Source: Candidatus Spyradenecus sp. (GTDB taxonomy: Bacteria > Verrucomicrobiota > Verrucomicrobiia > Opitutales > UBA953). From it: a stretch of DNA of 64,000 bases. Every line of letters begins with the position of its first letter. Position 1 is the first letter of the stretch. Both the position numbers and the translations under genes were made by a program. The stretch covers positions 12,286 through 76,285 of the forward strand of contig JAZRTJ010000084.1 of assembly GCA_045651925.1 (NCBI GenBank), read 5' to 3'. This document shows, in pieces, positions 814-17,617 of this stretch. The notes under the pieces were generated by a model. That model had not been told where the DNA came from and did no database searches. It saw only the letters and a list, made by a program, of their open reading frames with translations.

Positions 814-908
814 GGTTGCTTTTCTCTCTATATTATGAATTGGGAAAATGAAATGACAAAGCGCTCTTTCCCGCAAGCGGAAAGTGAGGCGCAGGCGGGG
901 CCTGCGCC

Positions 909-1397
909 AATTGCAAATTTCGAATTCCGAATGATTAAGGGGTTTTCTGCGAAAAAGATTAAAGATTAGAGGTTAAAGATTAAAGAAGCTCCGGCGAAAC
1001 CGGAGATAGGTAACACTCAAAAGGGAATGGGTAGTGGATAACTGATAACGGATAGGTTTCTCTGCAAAAAAGATTAAAGGTTATGAAACTAGCCCCGTTT
1101 GGAGGGGTGGAAAGAAGTTTTAAAGAGAGGGGCATTACGTGCTTTGGGGTGATTCCCGTGGAACGGGAATACATAGGATAACCGCGGGTGCAGGCAATAG
1201 CCGCAACCCGCGGAAGGGCGCCAGCGAATCATGCGCCGCTAAACGACCTCGATATGTCCCCGGCCTACCTGCGGCGCAATGGAACAAGCTACAAAAAGCG
1301 CTCCCGCCAACCAGCGCTCTTTAAGCTTTAAGCCCTAATCTTTAAGCTTTCTATCCGCTATCACTCTTTCGCGGTACGCATTCGAAATTCGCTATTC
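909..1397. repeat. Cluster of heptamer short-tandem-repeat arrays in nested inverted pairs
   Basis: GAATTCC-type at 909-935 (+) and 1377-1397 (-); AAAGATT/AAAGCTT-type at about 954-985 (+) and 1320-1350 (-); GATAAC-type at about 1037-1055 (+) and 1341-1354 (-). Confidence 0.7.
1082..1287 (+). repeat. Multi-hairpin dispersed repeat (REP/REPIN-like or ncRNA), copy 1, modules A-B-C
   Basis: Closely similar in inverted orientation to 5757-5960. Modules B-C also occur at 5591-5706 and module C at 5301-5356. Stems are CCGCGGGT..ACCCGCGG and TGCGCCGC..GCGGCGCA. Confidence 0.85.
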
Positions 1398-1561
1398 ATG
1401 CCGAAGGCACCGGACCGGTCCGAAAAAATATCCTTTATTTTAAGCGCCCGCATAAGCGTCACCGAAATTTTTTATTGACCTCAATTTTTCGCAGCGCGAC
1501 AATTTTTTCAAAATTACCCATACCCTTTTTTACCCAAGTTTTAAATTATTACTCGTTTGCT

Positions 1562-4500
1562 ATGAAGACTTCAAAATTCTTCTTCTCTACCCTCATTGCT
1601 GCCGCAGCCATGACCGCAAGTGCGTATGCGGCTACGTGGGAAACCGACGAAAGCGGCCTTCCTGTTGTTGTAGACTTCAGTGAAAAATCGGCCAATGCGT
1701 CTTCGGGGCAGCAAACCATCGACGCGGATACGGTATTTACCTTTAATACTGCAGGGAATGTTGGCATTGCTAATAATGACCCTACACAGGGATTTAATAC
1801 CAATGGGTACAATTTAGCTCTTCAAGCTGACGAGAAGGAGATGTTTATCAATGGAACGTTTCTTGGGAACGGGAATATCTACTTTGCGTCCGGACGTTGG
1901 CAGGCGCAAGTATCTGATACGTTTGTAAATATTGGAGAAATTTATGTCTCGGGAAATACTCAACTTCAGTTGAGTAACACGCAGGCGATTTCTGGAAATG
2001 TCTTTCTTGGAACAACGACATTTAAAACAGACGGAAATCTTACCAATGCGGCACTTCGTGTTGGTGTTGGAGGTCGCCACGTGAATGTGACTCTTGACGG
2101 GACAACAACGATTTTTTCTGATACGAAGATTGGTTATCAAAACTCTTCCACGCTAAATATTTCGAATCTCACGGGAACGGGTAATATTGCGACGGGGATT
2201 TGGGACGGGAATAATACGTTAAATATTAACGGCTCTACGAGCTTTACAGGTTCGATTGATGTTGTTTCCGGTATTACTTTGAACTGGAAGGATGCAAATG
2301 GTAGTTTTGGCGGACTTTCTGGGAACGGGGCTGTTGGCGGTGGAAGCATGCTTAATCTTGTGCTAGGAGATGGGGTAAGAAAAGACTTTTCTGGGACTGT
2401 TGGGGGCGTGGATTCCGCAGTTAATCTGAATATTTCCGGTACGGGAACACAGGCGTTTACGGGAGCAACTTATTTGGGCGAGGTTGCCAATTCTGGGAAT
2501 TTGGTACTTGGTGGGACTGTTTCGCTTTCTTCTGCGATTACCAATACGGGAATAATCACCCTCAATGATGCTGTTATTTTTGATCTTGGACAATTCAATC
2601 TCGCTTCTGGGGATAATGTGATTATTTCAGGAGGCACAATTACTCCCGGTTTGGGGAAGGGTAATTTCCAAAATATTGGCGTGATGCGCGGCGGGTCGTT
2701 TTCCGTTAATTCTACGACGTCGTCTCTTTCTCTCACACTTACGCAGGGCGTTGCCGGGACTCTCGCATGGAGTGGCGTAGCAGGTGCGGTGTGGAATACG
2801 AGCACGGATAATGACAGCGTCTGGACTCTTAGCGGAGGAGAAACTTCGTCTTTCTACTTTAAGGACAATGTTATTTTCGATGCTAGCGCGACCAACAAGA
2901 CAGTGAAGCTTGAGTCCGGAAATACGGTTACAGTGGGAACTGCTACGGTATCGGGAGGTCGATACATCTGGGATGTTCAGGGAGGAACGAAGCCTGCAGT
3001 TGTCTCTGGCTCTACGCTCACAATTGATGGTGGAGCGACGCTCCGTATTGGGAATGATACTACCGTCGCTGGCAATCGTGTGGAGCTTTCGTTTGACGAG
3101 ATCATTCTTGGAGGTGTTCTAGAGTACAACTCTCAAGGAACGACAACATGGTCGTCTCTCGAATTCAAGGAAGGAGGAAATTTGCATATTGTCGATGCGA
3201 CAGGGGGGACTCCGCAGTTGACGATTGATTCTGTTTCGGTTAGCGGAAATGCGACGATTACTTCTGCGGCAGATAAATCTCTCCAGATTAACGCTCTTTC
3301 TGGTGATAAGAATCTTACTGTTACGGGTGCGAATGCATGGGGAGAGCAGAAATTGATCTTGGGGAGCTTGTCGGACTATTCGGGTACATTGACACTGAAC
3401 GACGGAATATACGGGCTAGGTGTTAGTATCAACACCAAAGATATTGGAACCACGGCTAAAGTTGTTATCAACGACGGTGTTGTACTTGCTGCAACTTCTT
3501 CTGCTGGGCAAAACACAACGGTAGATATGTCCAACGTTTCTGGGACAGGGACAGTTTTGTTGAAGCTCAAAGCTGATAATGGTGCTGGGTTTAATCTTTC
3601 CAACTTTGCGGGTACGATTGAAGTTGATAATGCAGACGGGCAAGGGTCTGGTCGCTTGCAATTGAATACGTCAACCTTGAATACTTCTTCATTGATCAAA
3701 GTTCTCGATGGTGGGCAACTCGTATTTGATGATAATTCAAATAAGGATGTCTCCAACGATATTACGGTTTTAGCGAACTCGACGATTCATGTGAACACCG
3801 GTTGCTTGGGGACGCTTTCTGGGGCAATTAACGCCACGGGAACGGTTACCAAAGCAGGAGCAGGGACACTGACTCTCACGGGAGAAGCAAATATTGCGAA
3901 AATTGCTGTTGACACAGGGACACTGAATGTAGGCAATGGTGGCGTTTTGACTGTTACCGGTGACGATAATGGAACATCTGAAATTTCCGGCACCCTTAAT
4001 GTTACTGGCGGAGGAACTCTCAAGTTTGGAGGGCACGATGCGCTTGGGTATAACAACCGTAATGCGTCCGGAACGATTATCGCACAGGGAGCTTCCTCTG
4101 AAAAATTGGCTACAATCCTTTTCAATGATACAGGAAAGCTTACACTGTCCAAAGAAATTCAGCTGAAAGGAAACACTGTTGTCAAAAATGCGGACGGGAA
4201 TTCAAATAGCATCAAGGCATTTGGAGGTCAGTTTACGGCATCGGGAGCGAACAATACAATTTCCACTGCGTTTGATATGTCCGAAGGGAAGGTTGATTTC
4301 AGTGTCGTCCAAGATGGTTCTCTGACGGTTGACAGCGTGATTTCCGGAAGTAAATCATGGGACAAACTTGGTGATGGAACGTTGACGCTCAAGGGGAATA
4401 ATTCCTCTTATTCGGGAACAATCACTGTTTCTGCGGGAACGGTGGTTGCGGCTCATAAGAATGCACTCGGAAGCGGGAATGTGACGGTGGGTGTGGAAAA

Positions 4501-5221
4501 GATTTCTAGTGACTTGCCGTATGCTCCGACGTTGAATCTTGGTGCCGGAGAGGTCGTGGTCAATAATTTGAATGGTTATGGTGACATCTGCTTGGCTGAC
4601 GGGGTGGATGCTTCGACGCTAACGATTAATTCCACTGTAGATACTTCTTTTGAAGGGAATATTTATCCCGCCGCGTTGGATGATAGCAGTACGATCGGGC
4701 GTACGATATCGCTTGTCAAGACCGGTGACAAAGCGTTTACGCTTAACAGTATGTTTAATGCGTTAGATTTGGTTACGGTTAAAGAGGGGACATTGGCACT
4801 GACTGCGTATTCTGTCGGGTACGGATCAAGTGTCGCAGACGTGAAAGTCGAAGGCGGAGCAACACTGAAGGTCATTACGGGGGGAGTCACGACTGGCGCT
4901 CTCAGTTTTGATGCGGGAGCAACATTCGCACTTGATCTTACTTTATTTGGAGTTTCGTCCGACGCAGAGGAAACGCCTTTGTGCATCATCAGTGCGTCTG
5001 CGCTTACTTTCAATGGGGTGGACGCGGCTACAATGAGCTCTGAGGAAATTGACAGCTATCTTGATTTGGATAATTCCGCTCTTGGGCTTTACGCGAATAA
5101 TCGTGTGTGGTCATATGCTGACGGGATGCTGACGCTTGCGATTCCGGAGCCGTCGATGTTCGGCTTGTTGGCGGGCTTGGGTGCGTTGGCTTTGGCCGGT
5201 ACGCGTCGCCGCCGCAAGTAA
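1562..5221 (+). CDS. Large secreted adhesin-like protein with autotransporter-associated beta-strand repeats and a C-terminal PEP-CTERM sorting signal
   Basis: Signal peptide MKTSKFFFSTLIAAAAMTASAYA; repeats TKAGAGTLTLTG and KLGDGTLTLKGNNSSYSGTITVSAGT; C-terminus IPEPSMFGLLAGLGALALAGTRRRRK. Visibly AT-richer than flanking genes. Confidence 0.9.
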   Translation: MKTSKFFFSTLIAAAAMTASAYAATWETDESGLPVVVDFSEKSANASSGQQTIDADTVFTFNTAGNVGIANNDPTQGFNTNGYNLALQADEKEMFINGTFLGNGNIYFASGRWQAQVSDTFVNIGEIYVSGNTQLQLSNTQAISGNVFLGTTTFKTDGNLTNAALRVGVGGRHVNVTLDGTTTIFSDTKIGYQNSSTLNISNLTGTGNIATGIWDGNNTLNINGSTSFTGSIDVVSGITLNWKDANGSFGGLSGNGAVGGGSMLNLVLGDGVRKDFSGTVGGVDSAVNLNISGTGTQAFTGATYLGEVANSGNLVLGGTVSLSSAITNTGIITLNDAVIFDLGQFNLASGDNVIISGGTITPGLGKGNFQNIGVMRGGSFSVNSTTSSLSLTLTQGVAGTLAWSGVAGAVWNTSTDNDSVWTLSGGETSSFYFKDNVIFDASATNKTVKLESGNTVTVGTATVSGGRYIWDVQGGTKPAVVSGSTLTIDGGATLRIGNDTTVAGNRVELSFDEIILGGVLEYNSQGTTTWSSLEFKEGGNLHIVDATGGTPQLTIDSVSVSGNATITSAADKSLQINALSGDKNLTVTGANAWGEQKLILGSLSDYSGTLTLNDGIYGLGVSINTKDIGTTAKVVINDGVVLAATSSAGQNTTVDMSNVSGTGTVLLKLKADNGAGFNLSNFAGTIEVDNADGQGSGRLQLNTSTLNTSSLIKVLDGGQLVFDDNSNKDVSNDITVLANSTIHVNTGCLGTLSGAINATGTVTKAGAGTLTLTGEANIAKIAVDTGTLNVGNGGVLTVTGDDNGTSEISGTLNVTGGGTLKFGGHDALGYNNRNASGTIIAQGASSEKLATILFNDTGKLTLSKEIQLKGNTVVKNADGNSNSIKAFGGQFTASGANNTISTAFDMSEGKVDFSVVQDGSLTVDSVISGSKSWDKLGDGTLTLKGNNSSYSGTITVSAGTVVAAHKNALGSGNVTVGVEKISSDLPYAPTLNLGAGEVVVNNLNGYGDICLADGVDASTLTINSTVDTSFEGNIYPAALDDSSTIGRTISLVKTGDKAFTLNSMFNALDLVTVKEGTLALTAYSVGYGSSVADVKVEGGATLKVITGGVTTGALSFDAGATFALDLTLFGVSSDAEETPLCIISASALTFNGVDAATMSSEEIDSYLDLDNSALGLYANNRVWSYADGMLTLAIPEPSMFGLLAGLGALALAGTRRRRK

Positions 5222-5227
5222 GAGAAT

Positions 5228-5356
5228 AAAGCTTAAAGTTTAGGGCTTAAGGCTTAAAGAAGGGCGCTCTCGCTGTTTGGCGGGAGCGCTTTTTTGTGGC
5301 TTGTTTCATTGCGTCGCAGGCGGGTCAGGGCGTGCCTGAGTCCGTGAGCGGCGCAC
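5228..5356 (-). repeat. Inverted copy of 1230-1350 (module C, terminator-like hairpin and heptamer array)
   Basis: Its reverse complement GTGCGCCGC..CTGCGACGCAATGAAACAAGCCACAAAAAAGCGCTCCCGCCAAACAGCG..TTTAAGCCTTAAGCCCTAAACTTTAAGCTTT aligns with 1231-1350. It includes the probable terminator GGGCGCTCTCGC..GCGGGAGCGCTTTTTT at 5262-5295. Confidence 0.8.
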
Positions 5357-5505
5357 GGCCTCGAAGAGTCAATTGCGAATAGCGAATTCCGAATGCGTAC
5401 CACGAAAGTGATAACTGATAGTTGATAACGCATAAGTAAAAAGGCCGCAGCGCGAATAAGCTCCAAGCATCAAACATCGAGCATCAAGACAGCGTTAATC
5501 ATTAA

Positions 5506-6037
5506 GGCTACCTCGAGAAATTCAGTTTTTAGGGCATTGTCCTAAATTCCCTTCTTTCCACCTGTCAGAATCTGTGCTCCGGAGGTGCACTACATTGGAT
5601 AACCGCGGGTGCAGGCAATAGCCGAAACCCGCGGACAGGCCTCCGGCCCCATGCGCCGCTAAGTGACTTCGATCGCTCTCCGACCTGCCTGCGGCGCAAT
5701 GGAACAGACAGAAAAGAAATTAAAGAGACTCCGGTTTTGGTAATATCCGTCCATATTGTTCCATGCGCCGCAGGAAAATCAAAGACGTAGCTATGTCTTC
5801 AAGCGGCGCTTCTTACCTTTGGCAAATCCGCGGGTTGCGGCTATTGCCTCCACCCGCGGTTATCCCATGTATTCCCGTTCCACGGGAATCACCCCAAAGC
5901 ACGTAATGTCCCTCTCTTTAAGACGTCTTTCCATCCCGCCAAACGGGGCTAGTTTCATACAAAAAAGAGCGTCTCGCTACCCCCGAGACGCTCTTTTTGT
6001 AATGGTTCCTCTAAAAAATGAATTTCTAGAGGTAGCC
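5506..6037. mobile_element. Non-autonomous MITE-like element, 532 bp, with 27-bp terminal inverted repeats and TTAA flanks
   Basis: Left TIR GGCTACCTCGAGAAATTCAGTTTTTAG (5506-5532) versus reverse complement of 6011-6037 GGCTACCTCTAGAAATTCATTTTTTAG, 2 mismatches. TTAA at 5502-5505 and 6038-6041. No convincing internal ORF. Confidence 0.7.
5591..5871. repeat. Inverted doublet of the B-C hairpin repeat (REPIN-like) inside the MITE
   Basis: TACATNGGATAACCGCGGG..GCGGCGCA(A)TGGAACA at 5591-5706 (+) and 5757-5871 (-), separated by about 50 nt. Confidence 0.8.
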
Positions 6038-6054
6038 TTAAGGGTTAAGACACG

Positions 6055-6093
6055 AAAAAAGCGTTCCCGTGAATTTCACGGGAACGCCTTTTT
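6055..6093. terminator. Bidirectional rho-independent terminator
   Basis: AAAAAAGCGTTCCCGTGAATTTCACGGGAACGCCTTTTTT, downstream of the toxin gene. Confidence 0.7.
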
Positions 6094-6109
6094 TGTGAGA
6101 AGGATGCGT

Positions 6110-6373
6110 TTAGTTATGTCCGTAATGTGTTTTACAGGAGATAATTTCGAGCGCGTCGGCGCTTGAGCGATAGACGATTCGGTCTCTGCTGTTTATGCGG
6201 CGGCTCCAATAGCCGGCTAAGTCATGTTTGAGCGGCTCGGGTTTTCCGTCTCCCTCATAGGGCGTTCTTACGCATTGTTTGATGAGACGCACAATTTTTT
6301 TGAAGGTCTTGGGGTCTATTTCATGCCACAGGGTAAATTCTTCCCATGCGGCATTGTGCCAGACAATTTTCAT
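6110..6373 (-). CDS. yoeB: Txe/YoeB family toxin
   Basis: MKIVW..AWEEF..W, PYEGDGKPEPLKHDLAGYWSRRINSRDRIVY and SCKTHY match YoeB motifs. Confidence 0.9.
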   Translation of the reverse strand: MKIVWHNAAWEEFTLWHEIDPKTFKKIVRLIKQCVRTPYEGDGKPEPLKHDLAGYWSRRINSRDRIVYRSSADALEIISCKTHYGHN

Positions 6374-6627
6374 AAATCTTCGAGCCGAGTTGTTCTGCGT
6401 TTGGCGGGAGTACGCATTTCAGCAATTCGCTTCTTGAGTTCATTGATATTTTCCGGGCTGTTAAACGGATCCGGGGCAGAAACAGAAAATGGAATTGCAC
6501 GATCTGCGAGGACGCGGTGGACGAAAATGCTGATTGCCGCGGAGGGGGTTATGCCGATTTCACGGCAAATGGTATTGAATCCGTCTCGGGTTGTTTTATC
6601 GATACGAACTGAAATTGTTGTTTCCAT
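6370..6627 (-). CDS. RelB/DinJ family antitoxin
   Basis: METTISVRID..ICREIGITPSAAISIF....IPF ribbon-helix-helix pattern; 4-nt overlap upstream of the toxin. Confidence 0.85.
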   Translation of the reverse strand: METTISVRIDKTTRDGFNTICREIGITPSAAISIFVHRVLADRAIPFSVSAPDPFNSPENINELKKRIAEMRTPAKRRTTRLEDL

Positions 6628-10934: not shown

Positions 10935-11015
10935 GAGGCAATGGAAACGAGTTCCCGTGCCGCCGCCAAGAAAATTTTCTCGCAAGACAATCGCGGGAAC
11001 GCATGATTGAGCGCC

Positions 11016-11444
11016 ATGCATACCTGCGAAAAAATTTATACGGACATTCCGATCGGCCACGCGCAGCACCGCCACGCCGGGCACTGCCGGTTCGTCCACG
11101 GACACAATTGGTCGTTTGCCCTGACATTTGCCTGCGACGAGTTGGACGATCAGGGCTTCGTCATCGACTTCGGCGGTATCAAGTTTATCGCGCGCTGGAT
11201 TGACGAAAATCTCGACCATGCGTTCCTTTTTGCTGAAAGCGACACCGAAGGGCGTAAGATGCTCGCGGCGTTTCCGCATCTTTTCAAGGCCTACATCGTG
11301 AAAAACTGTTCGGCGGAAGGCTTGGCCGTTCACCTTTTTGATGTTTTCGACAAGCTCATCCGCGAGGAATCAAACGGTCGCGCCTGGCTTAAATCCATCC
11401 GCGTCGGGGAAGACAGCAAGAATTTCGCCTATTTCTCCAAATAG
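11016..11444 (+). CDS. queD: 6-carboxytetrahydropterin synthase (QueD/PTPS family)
   Basis: HAQHRH, CxxxHGH (CRFVHGH), GFVIDFG, LDHAFL and SAEGLA motifs; adjacent to queE. Confidence 0.85.
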   Translation: MHTCEKIYTDIPIGHAQHRHAGHCRFVHGHNWSFALTFACDELDDQGFVIDFGGIKFIARWIDENLDHAFLFAESDTEGRKMLAAFPHLFKAYIVKNCSAEGLAVHLFDVFDKLIREESNGRAWLKSIRVGEDSKNFAYFSK

Positions 11445-11455
11445 CGAAATTCTTG

Positions 11456-11922
11456 AATCTCAAATTTCGAATTCCGAATCCCGAATGCAATGACGGCAAG
11501 AGATGACAATGTAATTGAGAAGAAATCTTTTGCCTTTGCGGTTCGAATCGTACGTCTTTGTCGTTTTTTGAGGGAAAAGAAAAAGGAATTTGTGATTTCG
11601 GATCAGCTATTGCGCGCGGGAACCTCCGTCGGAGCGAATGTCACGGAGGCCCAGGAAGCGTTTTCCGAGAAGGATTTTGTAGCCAAGCTTTCGATTGCTC
11701 GAAAAGAGTCCGCAGAAAGTGCCTACTGGATTCGCTTGCTGTTTGAGACGGAATATCTTTCGCAGGAGCAATTTGATTCGATTTACGGAGATGCCGTTGA
11801 GATTCGAAAGATTCTTTCGTCGATTGTATTGACCATTGAGAAAAAGCAAAAACGAAATAAAGACGATGACTCAGCCGTTGAATGAAACTGAATTCGGAAT
11901 TCGGAATTCGGAATTCGAGATT
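11456..11922. mobile_element. Candidate small mobile unit: four-helix-bundle gene bounded by 33-bp inverted heptamer arms
   Basis: Left arm AATCTC-AAATTTC-GAATTCC-GAATCCC-GAATGC (11456-11488). Reverse complement of the right arm is AATCTC-GAATTCC-GAATTCC-GAATTCC-GAATTC (11890-11922). It sits between queD and queE. Confidence 0.6.
11490..11885 (+). CDS. Four helix bundle protein (TIGR02436 / 23S-IVP / bAvd-like)
   Basis: KSFAFAVRIVRL, QLLRAGTSVGANVTEA, DFVAKLSIARKESAESAYWIRLL. Confidence 0.9.
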   Translation: MTARDDNVIEKKSFAFAVRIVRLCRFLREKKKEFVISDQLLRAGTSVGANVTEAQEAFSEKDFVAKLSIARKESAESAYWIRLLFETEYLSQEQFDSIYGDAVEIRKILSSIVLTIEKKQKRNKDDDSAVE

Positions 11923-12543
11923 GTGAAAAAAATCAAATACAGCGTTTTTGAATTTTTTCACAGTTTCCAGGGCGAAGGGGAGTATCTCGGGCGCTCGGCG
12001 TTTTTCATTCGCCTTTTCGGGTGCCCGATTCGTTGTCCGTGGTGTGATTCTGCGGGAACCTGGCAGAGCGACGGCGCCGCCGAGGTGAAGCGCCTGTCGG
12101 CCGCCGAGCTGGCGGAAACGGCCGCCGCGGCAAAGCCCGACTGCGTCGTCATCACCGGCGGCGAACCGACGATTCATGATCTGACGCCGCTTTGCGACGC
12201 CCTTCACGCAAAAGGCCTACGCGTTCACTTGGAAACCTGCGGCGCATTTCCGATTCGCGGCGATGTCGATTGGGTGACCTTGAGCCCGAAGCGCCAAAAG
12301 CTTCCGCTTGCCGAAAATTGGGCGCGTGCCCGCGAAATCAAAATCATCGTCGATACGCCCGACGCCATTGCGGAGTGGGCGGGAAAAATCGGTGAGCATT
12401 CCGCGAGCTCGATTTGGCTGCATCCCGAATGGTCACGCTCCGAAGATCCCGAAATTCTCGGAAAAATCGCCGAGTGGATTTGCGCGCATGGGGCTCCCTA
12501 CCGCGCCGGCTGGCAGCTTCATAAGCTTTTCAGGGTGAGGTAG
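11866..12543 (+). CDS. queE: 7-carboxy-7-deazaguanine synthase (radical SAM); start is either ATG 11866 or GTG 11923
   Basis: EFFHSFQGEG, CxxxCxWCD (CPIRCPWCD), VITGGEP, LETCG, TLSPK and QLHK motifs. Confidence 0.9.
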   Translation: MTQPLNETEFGIRNSEFEIVKKIKYSVFEFFHSFQGEGEYLGRSAFFIRLFGCPIRCPWCDSAGTWQSDGAAEVKRLSAAELAETAAAAKPDCVVITGGEPTIHDLTPLCDALHAKGLRVHLETCGAFPIRGDVDWVTLSPKRQKLPLAENWARAREIKIIVDTPDAIAEWAGKIGEHSASSIWLHPEWSRSEDPEILGKIAEWICAHGAPYRAGWQLHKLFRVR

Positions 12544-12737: not shown

Positions 12738-15700
12738 ATGGCAAAAAAAACTCCCGTTAAAACCGGCGCGAAATCGACCAAATTCGTTTACGAATTCGGT
12801 AAAAAAACTGACGGCGCCGCAACGATGAAAAACCTCCTTGGCGGCAAAGGCGCCAATCTCGCCGAAATGGCTCGCATCGGTCTTCCCGTGCCGCCCGGCT
12901 TTACGATCAGCACCGAAGTCTGCACGTATTATTACAATAATAACAAAACCTATCCGGTCACGTTGATGGCCGACGTGCGTAAGGCTGTCGCTAATATCGA
13001 AAAGCAACTCGGAAAGAAGTTCGGCGACGCCGAAGGTTTCCCGCTGCTCGTTGCCGTCCGCTCCGGCGCCCGCGAATCGATGCCGGGTATGATGGACACG
13101 ATTTTGAATTTGGGCTTGAACGACGAAACCGTCGAAGCACTTGCCCGTGTGACGCAGAATGAGCGCTTTGCTTGGGACTGCTACCGCCGCTTTGTTCAGA
13201 TGTACGGCGACGTCGTGCTCGGCGTTCAGAAGCTTCCGGGCGAAGACCACGAACCGTTTGAAACGGTCATCGAATCCGTCAAGGCGGAGATGCTCGGCAA
13301 TGCGGAAGCGAGCGACACGGAACTGAAAGCTCCGGAACTGCGCGAGCTCGTTGTTCGCTTTAAAAAGCTGATTAAGGACCGCACGGGTTCGGAATTCCCG
13401 AGCGATCCGTGGGAACAGCTCGAAGGTGCTATCGGCGCTGTTTTCGGTTCCTGGATGAACGACCGCGCGATTGTTTATCGTCAGAAATACCATATCCCGT
13501 CGGACTGGGGAACGGCTGTCAACGTGCAGTCGATGGTCTTCGGTAACACGGGCGAAAAATCCGGCTCCGGTGTGGCGTTTACGCGTGACCCGGCGAGCGG
13601 CGAAAAGGTTTTCTACGGCGAATTCCTGATGAACGCGCAGGGCGAAGACGTCGTCGCGGGTGTCCGCACGCCGGCCCCGGTCGCGGAACTCAAGAAGGTC
13701 ATGCCGAGCGCCCACGCTCAGTTGCTCGGAATCTGCAAGACGCTGGAAAACCACTTCCGCGACATGCAGGACTTTGAATTTACGATTGAAGACTCGAAAG
13801 TGTTCATGCTCCAGACGCGTAACGGCAAGCGCACCGGCCTTGCGGCTATCCGCATTGCCTGCGAAATGGAGCAGGAAGGTCTGATTGATTGGAAGAAGGC
13901 GGTTTGCCGCGTTCCGGCCGATCAGCTCGACCAGGCGCTCGCTCCGGTTTTTGACCGCGCGGCACTGAAGAACGCCAAGCAGATTGCAAAGGGCCTTCCC
14001 GCCGGACCGGGCGCAGCTTCCGGCCACGTTTATTTCAATGCGGAACGCGCGGAAGCGGCTGCCAAGGAAGGCCAGAAGGTCCTCTTGGTTCGCCTCGAAA
14101 CCTCGCCGGAAGACCTCCGCGGGATGATCGCCGCTGAAGGTATTCTCACGGCCCGCGGAGGTGTTTCCTCGCACGCGGCGCTCGTGGCTCGCCAGATGGG
14201 CAAGGTCTGCGTCTGCGGTGCTTCGGGCATCACGATTGACTATGCGAAGAAGGTGCTGTTTGCCGGATCGGTCAAGGTCGAAGAAGGCGAATTCCTCTCC
14301 ATCGACGGAACGACGGGTGCGGTTTACGAAGGACAAATTCCGACGGCTCCGTCCGACATCGTGCTCGGCCTCGTTCAAAAGGATGCGACCGCACGCCGCT
14401 CCAAGGCCTACAAGAATTTTGCCAAGCTCATGGATTGGTGCTCGCAGGTGACGCGCCTCGGCGTGCGCACGAATGCGGACGCGCCGGAACAGGCCGCCGT
14501 TGCCGTGGCTTTCGGCGCTCAGGGTATCGGTCTGACGCGTACGGAACACATGTTCTTCGCGGGTGAACGCATCGACGCCGTTCGCGAAATGATTCTTGCA
14601 ACGGACCTGGATGCACGCCGCACCGCCGTGAACAAGTTGCTCCCGTACCAACGCGGAGACTTCCTCGGCATCTTCAAGACTCTCAAGGGCCTGCCGGCGA
14701 CGATTCGCTTGCTCGACCCGCCGCTGCACGAATTTCTCCCCCACACGAAGGAACAGCAGCTCGACCTCGCCAAGAAGTTGAACGTCCCCGTCGAACAGGT
14801 TCAGCGCCGCGTCTCCGAACTCCACGAGTTCAACCCGATGCTCGGTCACCGCGGCTGCCGTCTCGGCATTTCCTACCCGGAAATCACGGAAATGCAGGCG
14901 CGTGCCATCTTCGAAGCCGCTGCGGAAGTCGCTAAGATGCGCATTCCGGTCAATCCGGAAATCATGATCCCGCTCGTCGGCTTTGCTGCAGAATTCAAGA
15001 ACCAGGCTGCCGTTATCCGCCGCGTCGCTGCGGAAGTGATGGCCGAAAAGAAGGTGACGATTAACTACAAGGTCGGCACGATGATCGAAATCCCGCGCGC
15101 TTGTGCGACGGCGGACCAGATCGCGGAAGAAGCCGAATTCTTCTCCTTCGGAACGAATGACCTTACGCAAACTACGCTCGGAATGAGCCGCGACGACTCC
15201 GGTTCCTTCCTCGGCGACTACATCAATCGCGAAATCCTGAAGGCGAATCCGTTTGCTTCGATCGACCGTGAAGGCGTCGGCGCAATGATGAAGCTCGGTG
15301 TCAATCTCGGCCGTCAAACGCGTCCGGACATCAAGTTGGGCATCTGCGGCGAACACGGCGGCGATCCTGCTTCGGTCAAGTTCTGCCACAGCCTCGGCCT
15401 AACCTATGTCAGCTGCTCTCCGTACCGTGTTCCGACGGCGCGCTTGGCGGCGGCACAGGCTGCGATTGAAGAAGCAGCAGCTTTATCCTCCAAGAATATG
15501 GCTACTAAAACTACCCCTAAGAAGGCTCCGGCTAAGAAACCGGCGGCCAAAAAAGCTCCGGCCGCCAAGGCCGCTGTGAAGAAACCGGTTGCGAAGAAAG
15601 CGGCTCCGAAGGCTGCTGCGAAACCGGCGGCTAAGCCGGCAGTGAAGAAGGCTCCGGCGAAAAAGCCCGCTGCGGCTCCGAAGGCTGCTGCCAAGAAGCC

Positions 15701-15884
15701 GGTAGCAAAAGCTCCCGCCAAGAAAGCTGCTCCGAAAGCGGCTCCGGCCAAGAAGGCCGCGCCTGCTAAGAAGGCCGCTCCGAAGGCAGTAGCAAAGGCT
15801 GCTCCGGCGAAGAAGGCAACGGCGACGAAGGCGGCTCCCGCCAAGAAACCGTGCGCTAAGCGCGGTGGCTGCAAGAAGAAATAA
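12738..15884 (+). CDS. ppdK: Pyruvate, phosphate dikinase with an in-frame C-terminal Ala/Lys/Pro-rich histone H1-like extension
   Basis: [32 protein letters not shown] (phospho-His), [27 protein letters not shown]; 128-aa AKP tail from ATG 15498. Confidence 0.95.
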
Positions 15885-17542: not shown

Positions 17543-17617
17543 GCCAGAGTAGCTCAGCGGTAGAGCACGGGACTCATAAGCCTATGGTCGGTGGTTCAAA
17601 TCCACCCTTTGGCACCA
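17543..17617 (+). tRNA. tRNA with CAT anticodon (non-initiator; Ile2 or elongator Met)
   Basis: Acceptor GCCAGAG/CTTTGGC, D arm GCTC/GAGC, loop CTCATAA, T arm GGTGG-TTCAAAT-CCACC and encoded CCA. G1-C72 pairing excludes fMet. Confidence 0.9.

Follow-up and report, generated by a model that had tools for sequence, protein, structure and literature searches.

The window, the whole stretch of 64,000 nucleotides that was analysed, holds a single four-helix-bundle (4HB) gene, which in this rumen Opitutales bacterium separates queD from queE and is armed on both sides with heptamers (Table 1). The queD stop codon TAG occupies 11442-11444, the 4HB gene starts with the ATG at 11490, and queE starts with the GTG at 11923. 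The array (GAATTCG)x4 plus AGATT of the right arm, 11890-11922, lies directly against this GTG. A repeat search pairs 11456-11489 with 11889-11922 over 34 nt at 88% complementarity, separated by 399 nt, and TRF reports period-7 arrays at 11463-11486 and 11890-11917. The cassette is therefore bounded by 34-nt terminal inverted repeats. A preliminary description of this DNA had claimed such arms, at 33 bp; the positions it gave for the arms, the reading frame and the adjacent stop and start codons all hold. The genes around the 4HB gene encode an ABC transporter, an acylphosphatase, QueD, QueE and PPDK. Both the QueD-like and the QueE-like products score below the NCBIfam equivalog cut-offs (60 bits with TIGR03367 for the former), and a member of the 90% cluster of the queD product is named 6-carboxytetrahydropterin synthase [Opitutales bacterium]. 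Gene callers place the queD start at the ATG at 11016. The queE gene could also start at an in-frame ATG at 11866, in which case translation would cross the right arm, and gene callers chose the upstream start at L161 and L166. No catalytic domain was found within about 3 kb of the cassette, and no promoter-like or terminator-like site near it. The GC content of the cassette is 41-46%, against 55-63% in its flanks. In the window, Rfam gives a single match that passes the gathering threshold, a tRNA at 17543-17614; thus, the window contains no rRNA.

Table 1. Coordinates of the cassette, its neighbours and related arrays within the 64,000-nt window
Feature	Position	Strand	Basis
Orphan A-type arm	908-935		914-932 (19 nt) identical to 11461-11479
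Orphan A-type arm, opposite orientation	1366-1397		94% complementary to 5377-5408
Orphan A-type arm	5370-5408		GAATTCG dimer matches
Orphan CAAGCAT-type array (heptamer type of form B)	5464-5488		TRF, compared with form B arms
queD-like 6-carboxytetrahydropterin synthase gene (PTPS family)	11007-11444	+	PF01242, E 1.8e-21
Left junction hairpin	11417-11455	+	12/12 complementary, fold z = -4.4
Exchangeable segment, form A versus form B	11456-11942	+	L166 (A) versus L167 (B), flanks 99-100% identical
Left arm, about 5 heptamers (AATCTCA AATTTCG AATTCCG AATCCCG AATGCA)	11456-11489	+	Repeat search, TRF
4HB gene, 131 aa, S23p / 23S_rRNA_IVP / TIGR02436, cassette form A	11490-11885	+	PF05635, TIGR02436
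Right arm, T + (GAATTCG)x4 + AGATT, reverse complement of left arm	11889-11922	+	Repeat search, TRF
Right junction hairpin	11917-11967	+	Fold z = -5.3
queE-like radical-SAM 7-carboxy-7-deazaguanine synthase gene	11923-12543	+	PF04055 and TIGR04322-like, below cut-off

The 4HB product matches PF05635 (E 1.3e-28; 99.8 bits against a cut-off of 33.8) and TIGR02436 (108.5 bits against a cut-off of 24). To our knowledge, PF05635 proteins, first found in rRNA intervening sequences in 1993, still have no assigned function. The AlphaFold model (pLDDT 94.7) has four long helices, and its best fold matches are 2RLD (TM 0.80/0.94) and 2GSC (TMt 0.83), crystal relatives of five chains each. The DGR protein Avd follows (4DWL, TM ~0.8, and 8UBE, in which Avd is in an RNA complex), which agrees with the likeness to Avd noted in the preliminary description. 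At the sequence level, the likeness to Avd is too weak for a profile search to detect. Avd itself forms a positively charged pentamer that binds nucleic acid and has a dedicated RNA-binding element (bioRxiv 10.1101/2023.10.23.563531), and Pfam and CDD place Avd and 4HB proteins together (PMC10053308). Unlike DGR Avd genes, the window gene has neither a reverse transcriptase nor a template or variable repeat nearby, and DGRs are not described with heptamer arms. The median pI of the family is 9.0; the window protein, at 6.4, is not basic. Binding of the arms by the 4HB protein is plausible.

Across the clade, the queD-queE site exists in three states: empty, filled by form A as in the window, or filled by form B, whose protein is 55% identical to that of form A and whose arms consist of CAAGCAT units. 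About 50 outgroup queD-queE loci, with gaps of -3 to 36 nt, carry no cassette, and one empty locus, L146, is placed inside the filled clade. Strains whose flanks are 99-100% identical can carry either form A or form B at one and the same position, and then differ in nothing but the cassette. For example, L166 (A) and L167 (B) diverge only within positions 2430-2960 of L166, from directly after AAATTCTTG to directly before GTTTTTGAA. By this comparison, the exchangeable segment ends on the right at about 11942, within the first queE codons. Loose ends at 11455 and 11943 in the rumen runs X3 and X4 correspond to form B junctions. Gene and arms are thus gained, lost and exchanged as a single block, being jointly absent from L146 and the outgroup loci and jointly replaced by form B. 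The preliminary description, which had taken gene and arms for one unit and looked to queD-queE relatives for empty sites, is borne out on both points.

The block is not a recent arrival. Both forms occur in each of the three host subclades, and the tree of each form mirrors the host tree. Synonymous divergence of the cassette is close to that of queD in two comparisons (dS 0.376 versus 0.374 and 0.266 versus 0.236), queD dS between an A strain and a B strain is 0.011, and relatives of form B at 67-82% identity are all found at the queD-queE site. Forms A and B look like the two alleles of an old polymorphism that has co-diverged with its host, which contradicts reading the clean insertion initially proposed as a fresh one. 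Within the explanation favoured below, we lean towards a cassette that is a long-term resident of this lineage, held as a two-allele polymorphism, and not actively jumping. With dN/dS values of 0.03-0.14 (0.07-0.14 for form A), the 4HB protein is under purifying selection, and it evolves about as slowly as QueE. Beyond its own right arm, one form B locus, L177, still has the outer arm units of form A and the A-type start of queE. This pattern resembles form B nested in form A arms; since a recombinant haplotype explains L177 equally well, nesting is not counted as demonstrated.

The slow evolution of the protein, its co-orientation with the neighbouring genes and its presence at the same site in all close relatives first sampled would also suit an ordinary accessory gene that is passed on vertically within the queuosine operon, whose inverted repeats are regulatory and which does not behave as a cassette. 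However, the gene is absent from the roughly 50 distant loci and from L146 inside the clade, it is replaced at the same position by a 55%-identical paralogue with different arms, and an identical architecture recurs across phyla in operons unrelated to this one. The empty and alternative alleles in effect refute a plain accessory gene, and we regard this explanation as very improbable.

The pattern extends well beyond this clade. In a sample of 80 homologous loci from many phyla, 71 4HB genes were compared with 91 control genes from the same loci, with a score of 12 or more as the criterion for an inverted repeat. Inverted flanking repeats accompany 45/71 4HB genes and 0/91 controls (Fisher 7e-22), confirming the enrichment of heptamer arrays beside 4HB genes that had been anticipated from this locus. 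At least one flank carries a period-7 array in 83% of 4HB genes versus 10% of controls. The arms mostly comprise 4-5 heptamers (~31-33 nt), and start and stop codons often fall within them. The heptamer consensus is A-R-T-K-n-n-n, with a fixed polarity in which A-R-T-K runs inward from both tips; the form B heptamer CAAGCAT does not fit this consensus. Heptamer type and protein identity are correlated (rho -0.27, permutation p<0.0005). Cassettes are co-oriented with the upstream neighbour at 69/72 loci and with both neighbours at 58/64. Most lie between housekeeping genes, such as lepA-hemN, nuoE-nuoF, smpB-tsaB and ychF-lgt. Identical proteins keep to one context: P0085 (85 contigs) is always found at lepA-hemN, and P0240 (137 contigs) always in one type III restriction-modification (R-M) operon. 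Arms are also present in 11/18 homologs on viral contigs. The arm-less viral homologs were considered as candidate DGR Avd genes, but no reverse transcriptase was found among those of their neighbours that were tested. In the literature searched, no link between PF05635/TIGR02436 genes and heptamer arrays was found beyond a single Coxiella description, nor were typical arm sequences found in print. Tandem 7-nt intergenic repeats, the STRR of cyanobacteria, resemble the 4HB heptamer arrays, and we know of no link between STRR and 4HB genes.

Period-7 arrays that lack a 4HB gene do occur elsewhere in the window, as would be expected if heptamer arrays were general intergenic repeats that lie beside 4HB genes by chance. 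The control-gene test contradicts this reading: such arms flank none of the 91 control genes of the same loci, they are missing where the gene is missing, and the heptamer type follows the protein lineage. Coincidence is thus hardly credible.

With at most 2 mismatches allowed, the window contains 18 copies of the GAATTCG dimer where 1.8 are expected, and 0/100 shuffles reach 18. Matches to the dimer include sites at 914-934, 1378-1391 and 5376-5397, so the orphan arms reported in the preliminary description exist. No remnant of a 4HB gene was found between the orphan arms, and Rfam gave nothing meaningful on the orphan-array regions. In rumen metagenomes, the right-arm array is multi-copy, with depth spikes and unrelated flanks. 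The number of left-arm units varies by strain: L162 has one unit fewer, L001 differs from L002, and an RNA contig from a metatranscriptome assembly bears a 7-nt deletion at 11463. Arm units are thus gained and lost by slippage.

The cassette is flanked by two hairpins that consist of host coding sequence (Table 1), one of which shows compensatory changes. In the left hairpin, 11417-11428 (queD codons K-N-F-A) pairs with 11444-11455, so that the queD stop codon lies in the loop and the 3' half comprises the G of that stop codon and the 11-nt "spacer". All three host subclades retain this hairpin at their A and B loci, with compensatory changes from G-C to A-T and from C-G to T-A; it is absent from the empty site L146. 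On the right, 11923-11937 (the queE GTG and four codons) pairs with 11947-11961 (queE codons F-E-F-F-H). L166 and L003 have the 15-bp stem without a mismatch; in subclade III the sequence is different but the structure is the same, reaching 18-21 bp in L006. Fold z-scores of the junction hairpins range from -4.4 to -6.8. One earlier claim needs correcting, namely that removal of 11456-11922 would cleanly restore a normally spaced operon. The coordinates stand, but the 11 nt left behind are half of a conserved 12-bp hairpin seen only at cassette loci and not a neutral spacer, and the right edge is near 11942 and not 11922. Across the family, such hairpins are not the rule at cassette junctions (p = 0.23). 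Hairpins of 15-20 bp were also observed at the junctions of L048, L061 and L006.

The preliminary description knew of no mechanistic account of such a system, but elements of the same design are described. The closest known system is the 23S rRNA intervening sequence (IVS) that carries S23p, found in Leptospira, Coxiella, Haemophilus and Brucella. Like the window cassette, these elements of about 430-470 nt contain a PF05635 reading frame enclosed by a stem of terminal inverted repeats of about 28-34 bp. The Coxiella IVS measures 428 nt and has an S23p reading frame and a 28-bp terminal stem that is cut by RNase III (PMC4990558). Its arm carries 2-3 GACAGAT heptamers directly 5' of the start codon, in a number that varies among strains (PMC4990558). 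Both systems are sporadically distributed, with inferred horizontal transfer and no encoded recombinase (PMC4990558). However, the IVS resides in helix 25 or 45 of 23S rRNA, whereas the window cassette lies in the spacer of a protein operon. The Coxiella reading frame is apparently dispensable, decaying and unexpressed (PMC4990558), in contrast to the clear purifying selection on the window protein. The IVS description includes neither a family-wide heptamer rule nor a two-allele polymorphism nor junction hairpins. Excision by RNase III has been demonstrated for the rRNA elements; for the window cassette, we infer it from those elements of other bacteria.

On this basis, the best model is an RNA-level, self-insulating cassette with a pentameric Avd-like protein that binds the arms, a reading to which we give somewhat better than even weight. 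The cassette would be transcribed by read-through out of queD, and the arms would pair in the transcript to form a ~34-bp duplex that RNase III could cut, on the model of the rRNA elements. The cut would free the 4HB message as a closed loop and leave each of the two flanking messages, queD and queE, with a junction hairpin as its cap; this proposed capping may be how the operon tolerates its passenger. A basic pentameric 4HB protein would then bind the heptamer array, with about one unit per subunit. As part of this model, the window cassette is probably, though far from certainly, the form A member of a very large family of compact promoter-less 4HB cassettes, each with a gene of ~120 aa that two inverted arrays of 4-5 heptamers enclose almost to the codon (PF05635 comprises 20,180 clusters at 50% identity). 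In the MFE and the centroid fold of 11440-11940 alike, the closing stem consists of the paired arms. Among the assembled contigs of one metatranscriptome, a single contig joins queD, the left arm and the 4HB start. A wobble test favoured neither side: sense-strand arm mismatches comprise 25 G.U and 25 A.C, and the long stem therefore bears no RNA-specific signature. Register-tolerant pairing and protein binding are two ideas as to why the arms might consist of heptamers and not of just any inverted repeat. The RNA-level model leaves the long-lived A/B polymorphism without an explanation.

Alternatively, the cassette could be a DNA-level mobile element with its arms acting as terminal inverted repeats composed of several binding sites; the pentamer would bind and pair the ends, and a host enzyme or one encoded elsewhere would cut and join, possibly preferring hairpins or resident arms. 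Several observations suit such an element, including arm complementarity without an RNA wobble bias, the fixed inward polarity of A-R-T-K, the co-variation of heptamer type and protein, and the distinct GC content of the cassette. Cassettes on viral contigs, orphan and interleaved arrays in the window, and L177, which looks as if B had entered an A-type element, point the same way, as do reading frames with 76-78% nucleotide identity that lie between unrelated flanks in different phyla. However, no identical or near-identical cassette was found at two sites among the surveyed loci, and where reading frames of the 80 genomes are highly identical, the paired loci are orthologous. The junctions show no target-site duplication and instead hold inverted copies of host sequence, and the assembled contigs contain no excision joint or circle of the kind that the preliminary description had suggested looking for. 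The very long co-divergence of the cassette with the queD-queE site and the lack of a catalytic domain within ~3 kb also argue against mobility at the DNA level. We know of no nuclease or recombinase activity for the 4HB fold. Because the cassette is old at its site and no second site, target-site duplication or excised form was seen, the "transposase-free mobile element" of the preliminary description is still hypothetical, and we hold a DNA-level element to be possible but unlikely.

Known classes of small elements resemble the 4HB cassettes only in part. Integron gene cassettes are likewise promoter-less, co-oriented single-gene units expressed by read-through, bounded by imperfect inverted repeats and exchangeable at a fixed site. 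Unlike them, 4HB cassettes have no attC, attI or integrase, have a heptamer array on either side of their gene, and are found one at a time in housekeeping operons rather than in arrays. REP/BIME elements with RAYT transposases and MITEs are also short intergenic inverted-repeat elements without a transposase of their own, often located inside operons and able to form RNA hairpins. In contrast, 4HB cassettes carry a conserved non-transposase gene, are low-copy and stable in position, and show no target-site duplication.

The persistence of A and B in each of three subclades, each form co-diverging with its host, is also what balancing selection on a conflict or recognition module would produce. 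Here, the 4HB protein would have a frequency-dependent function (defence, counter-defence, addiction or self-recognition) that keeps two alleles and the empty state, and the arms would be only an expression or insulation device. Near-isogenic strains that differ in the cassette only, the cassettes within a type III R-M operon and the role of Avd relatives in diversity-generating systems are consistent with such a module. Likewise, 4HB genes are among the strain-specific genes of Arthrospira, and cassettes are found in cas operons (PMC3936711). However, PADLOC matches neither form A nor form B, PHROGs gives no match, no partner gene accompanies the cassette, and most cassettes lie between housekeeping genes. 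Recombination between related lineages could maintain the polymorphism instead. We thus consider a conflict module distinctly improbable.

A broader reading would make PF05635 cassettes widespread recombinase-free selfish genes of operons. The pentamer would recognise its own arrays, and the cassettes would spread, for example, by RNA- or DNA-hairpin-directed insertion into loops or resident arms through host enzymes, with competing types persisting as ancient same-site alleles. We view this reading as tentative and rather unlikely. If true, it would also explain the origin of 23S rRNA intervening sequences.

These findings link rRNA intervening sequences, thousands of stray 4HB genes in operons across numerous phyla, and tandem heptamer repeats, which were formerly treated separately. 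They also supply a simple rule, a co-oriented and promoter-less gene with inverted heptamer arms, that turns an annotation dead end into a testable subject. The A/B/empty polymorphism at a single site, outliving host divergence, is unusual for bacteria and points to a drive-like or frequency-dependent function. If the arms are RNA insulators, they would offer a natural design for portable gene cassettes.

The cassette between queD and queE is a discrete unit with a family-wide architecture: co-oriented with its neighbors, promoter-less, and encoding a four-helix-bundle (4HB) protein that is under purifying selection. Its arms, reading frame, spacing to queD and queE, and the orphan arms (heptamer arrays without an adjoining 4HB gene) were confirmed on the window sequence as given in the preliminary description (see table). 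The two arms are 88% complementary, and the G+C content of the cassette is 41-46% compared with 55-63% in the flanks. Neither a sigma-70-like promoter nor a terminator was seen around it. The GAATTCG dimer (at most two mismatches) has 18 matches in the window against 1.8 expected, a number reached by no shuffle; among them are the orphan arms (914-934, 1378-1391, and 5376-5397). At 11866-11925, translation from an in-frame ATG (11866), which would give a 20-nt overlap with the 4HB gene, would read through the right arm and extend QueE at its N terminus (..EFGIRNSEFEI..). In several relatives, the equivalent upstream start is the one chosen by gene callers, and at the homologous loci L003, L004, and L006, the 4HB stop codon and the queE start overlap (ATGA). 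Downstream, a pyruvate phosphate dikinase gene (12738-15884) has a long Lys/Ala/Pro-rich, histone H1-like tail, and its relatives give a weak HC2 match.

Cassette, neighboring genes, and junction hairpins in the window
Feature	Position	Description
queD	11442-11444 (stop)	TAG; PTPS family, PF01242
Left junction hairpin	11417-11428 x 11444-11455	queD codons in 5' strand; perfect pairing; stop codon in loop
Left arm	11456-11489	34 nt, AATCTCA AATTTCG AATTCCG AATCCCG AATGCA; ends one base 5' of ATG
4HB ORF	11490-11885	131 aa; PF05635 E 1.3e-28; TIGR02436 108.5 bits (cut-off 24)
Right arm	11889-11922	T(GAATTCG)x4AGATT; directly adjoins GTG
queE-like gene	11923 (start)	GTG; radical-SAM
Right junction hairpin	11923-11937 x 11947-11961	queE start region paired with queE codons

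A profile built from 20 homologs yielded 80 loci in species-representative genomes, including Bacteroidota, Clostridia, Pirellulaceae, Endomicrobia, Ignavibacteria, Desulfobulbia, beta- and gamma-proteobacteria, Anaerolineae, and SAR202. The 90 nt 5' of each start were compared with the 90 nt 3' of the stop, using other genes at the same loci as controls. Inverted-repeat scores of at least 12 were obtained for 45 of 71 4HB genes and 0 of 91 control genes (Fisher 7e-22), which bears out the proposed enrichment of heptamer arrays across phyla; a period-7 array lies in at least one flank of 83% of 4HB genes versus 10% of controls. Arm size clusters at 4-5 units (~31-33 nt), and arms often include the start or stop codon itself (..GAATG; TAATT..). 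The heptamer varies by locus (AATTACG, AATTAGG, AATTGAC, AATTCAA, AATGCAT, AGTGAGG, and others), with a pooled consensus of A-R-T-K-n-n-n. Mean protein identity is 63% for loci sharing a heptamer versus 50-52% for very different heptamers (heptamer type against protein identity, rho -0.27, permutation p<0.0005). Cassettes share their orientation with the upstream gene in 69/72 cases and with both neighbors in 58/64. The family comprises 20,180 representatives at 50% identity, and arms are present in 11 of 18 homologs from viral contigs. Other host operons include lepA-hemN, type III mod-res, thiolase-holA, smpB-tsaB, nuoE-nuoF, and ychF-lgt, and a cassette between cmr3 and cmr2 has been reported (PMC3936711). 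Cassettes within core operons occur at L074 and L151-L160, one between the NADH dehydrogenase genes nuoE and nuoF and another in lepA-hemN of gut Oscillospiraceae. In Flavobacterium (L201-L210), a cassette lies within a type III restriction-modification operon, between methyltransferase and RhuM/helicase-nuclease genes; this arrangement is the same across many samples, with methyltransferase lengths of 525 to 598 aa.

The window cassette belongs to a rumen Opitutales bacterium. Without exception, its closest 4HB homologs (73-89% identity) occupy the queD-queE site and have GAATTCG-type arms, and the regions upstream differ among them. Empty sites, which the preliminary description proposed to seek in relatives, were found. 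Gaps of -3 to 36 nt, with nothing in between, separate the two genes at about 50 queD-queE loci that are more distant, and L146, nested within the filled clade with a QueD 90-91% identical to those of cassette-bearing L004 and L006, has a 65-nt spacer with zero heptamers. Loci with identical QueD protein carry either form A, as in the window (131-aa gene, GAATTCG arms), or form B, a 124-aa 4HB gene with CAAGCAT arms whose protein is 54.6% identical to that of form A. Loci L166 (A) and L167 (B), on contigs of >100 kb from different samples, have flanks that are 99-100% identical (2.4 kb on the upstream side, 1.5 kb on the downstream side); between ..AAATTCTTG| (window 11455/11456) and |GTTTTTGAA.. 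(window about 11942), identity is only ~60%. In two rumen runs, contigs break off at 11455 and 11943, and these loose ends are form B junctions. Every form B relative (67-82% identity) again lies between queD and queE. The QueD tree has three host subclades, each containing A and B, and the A and B trees both mirror the host tree.

Among same-form pairs (A-A and B-B), cassette dS equals that of queD (0.376 vs 0.374; 0.266 vs 0.236). The cassette is ancient and stable here, not a recent clean insertion. When strains of different form are compared, queD dS can be as low as 0.011. Form A and B proteins have dN/dS of 0.03-0.14, indicating that both are functional. The simplest reading of these sequences is a long-standing polymorphism, with two alleles and an empty state, in which recombination has homogenized the flanks; a possible alternative is repeated exchange between lineages. 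Outside its own right arm, locus L177 (form B) still has the outer form A arm units and a queE start of the A type, which suggests nesting or recombination between forms. At another form B locus (L168, 2430-2900), gene callers place nothing between queD and queE; the B frame looks largely intact (94% identity, tblastn), and the missing call may stem from the start codon or the calling itself, or from decay at an early stage.

With a pLDDT of 94.7, the 4HB structure model best matches two pentameric crystal structures, 2RLD and 2GSC; next comes Avd, the accessory protein of diversity-generating retroelements, including Avd inside the retroelement ribonucleoprotein. Avd, described as "similar to S23 ribosomal proteins," forms a pentamer with positive charge and binds a defined RNA element (bioRxiv 10.1101/2023.10.23.563531). 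The family's median pI is 9.0 versus 6.4 for the window protein. The preliminary description knew of no mechanism for such a system; one of the same kind has been described. The S23p-carrying intervening sequence (IVS) of Coxiella 23S rRNA spans 428 nt, has a 28-bp terminal stem that RNase III cuts mid-stem, and carries two or three GACAGAT heptamers immediately 5' of the ORF, their number depending on the strain (PMC4990558). The same paper mentions an older suggestion, in which the IVS is a mobile element and its ORF aids its mobility. Given this shared S23p ORF, terminal stem, and heptamers, the window cassette is an rRNA-IVS-type element that, unlike the IVS, sits in a protein-coding operon. 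As in Coxiella, heptamer number varies: strains differ by exactly one left-arm unit (L162 vs L161, L001 vs L002), and so does one RNA contig. Arms change unit number by slippage, and conserved hairpins flank the cassette.

In the predicted transcript fold, MFE and centroid alike, the arms pair as a closing stem around the ORF. In the likeliest mechanism, the cassette would be transcribed by read-through and the arm duplex cut by RNase III. Cutting would release the 4HB message as a loop held shut by what remains of the stem, and queD would end up with a hairpin on its 3' side and queE with one on its 5' side. Whatever the register, arms built from identical units would still pair after slippage. 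The number of units (4-5) corresponds to the five subunits of the ring protein, and this protein may bind the units. The left junction hairpin is retained in every subclade, at A and B loci alike, and is absent from empty L146; two positions have changed on both strands of its stem (G-C to A-T; C-G to T-A). In subclade III, an 18-21-bp hairpin of different sequence occupies the right-junction position. Junction hairpins are not general among the family's loci.

Wobble pairs are not favored among the arm mismatches (25 vs 25), a point against the RNA reading. In a rival reading, the protein would bind the arms as terminal repeats, and a trans-acting factor would provide catalysis. Such DNA-level action fits the fixed heptamer polarity, the spread across phyla, and the orphan and interleaved arrays; against it, no second-site copies or target duplication were seen, nor any excised or circular forms in contig-level data. 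The interpretation first proposed is partly supported: the cassette is a true, exchangeable gene-plus-arms unit of a large family, and its status as a transposase-free mobile element is hypothetical.

Elsewhere in the window, 900-1400 and 5200-6100 are dense mosaics of period-7 arrays (A type, AAAGATT, GGATAAC, CAAGCAT), interleaved rather than cleanly nested. A ~190-nt GC-rich core occurs in three copies (1082-1286, 5591-5706, and, reverse-complemented, 5764-5959). These regions gave no Rfam match and no 4HB remnant. A terminator-like hairpin plus heptamer array, in inverted copies at 1293-1350 and 5228-5294 (94-96% complementary), brackets a 1248-aa PEP-CTERM surface protein gene (1475-5221). 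Heptamer-array inverted repeats therefore also bracket a large non-4HB gene, and the region could be an invertible or exchangeable segment. On the minus strand at 6110-6627, two small overlapping ORFs (87 and 85 aa) resemble, by eye, a toxin-antitoxin pair (YoeB/RelE-like plus antitoxin).

A search of defence libraries with the cassette proteins gave no match, and none of the literature found generalizes heptamer arms or describes such cassettes in operons; the family-wide arm rule and the population pattern appear undescribed. The cassette is exchangeable and has spread horizontally over evolutionary time, and the persistence of its polymorphism may point to a function that is frequency-dependent or drive-like.
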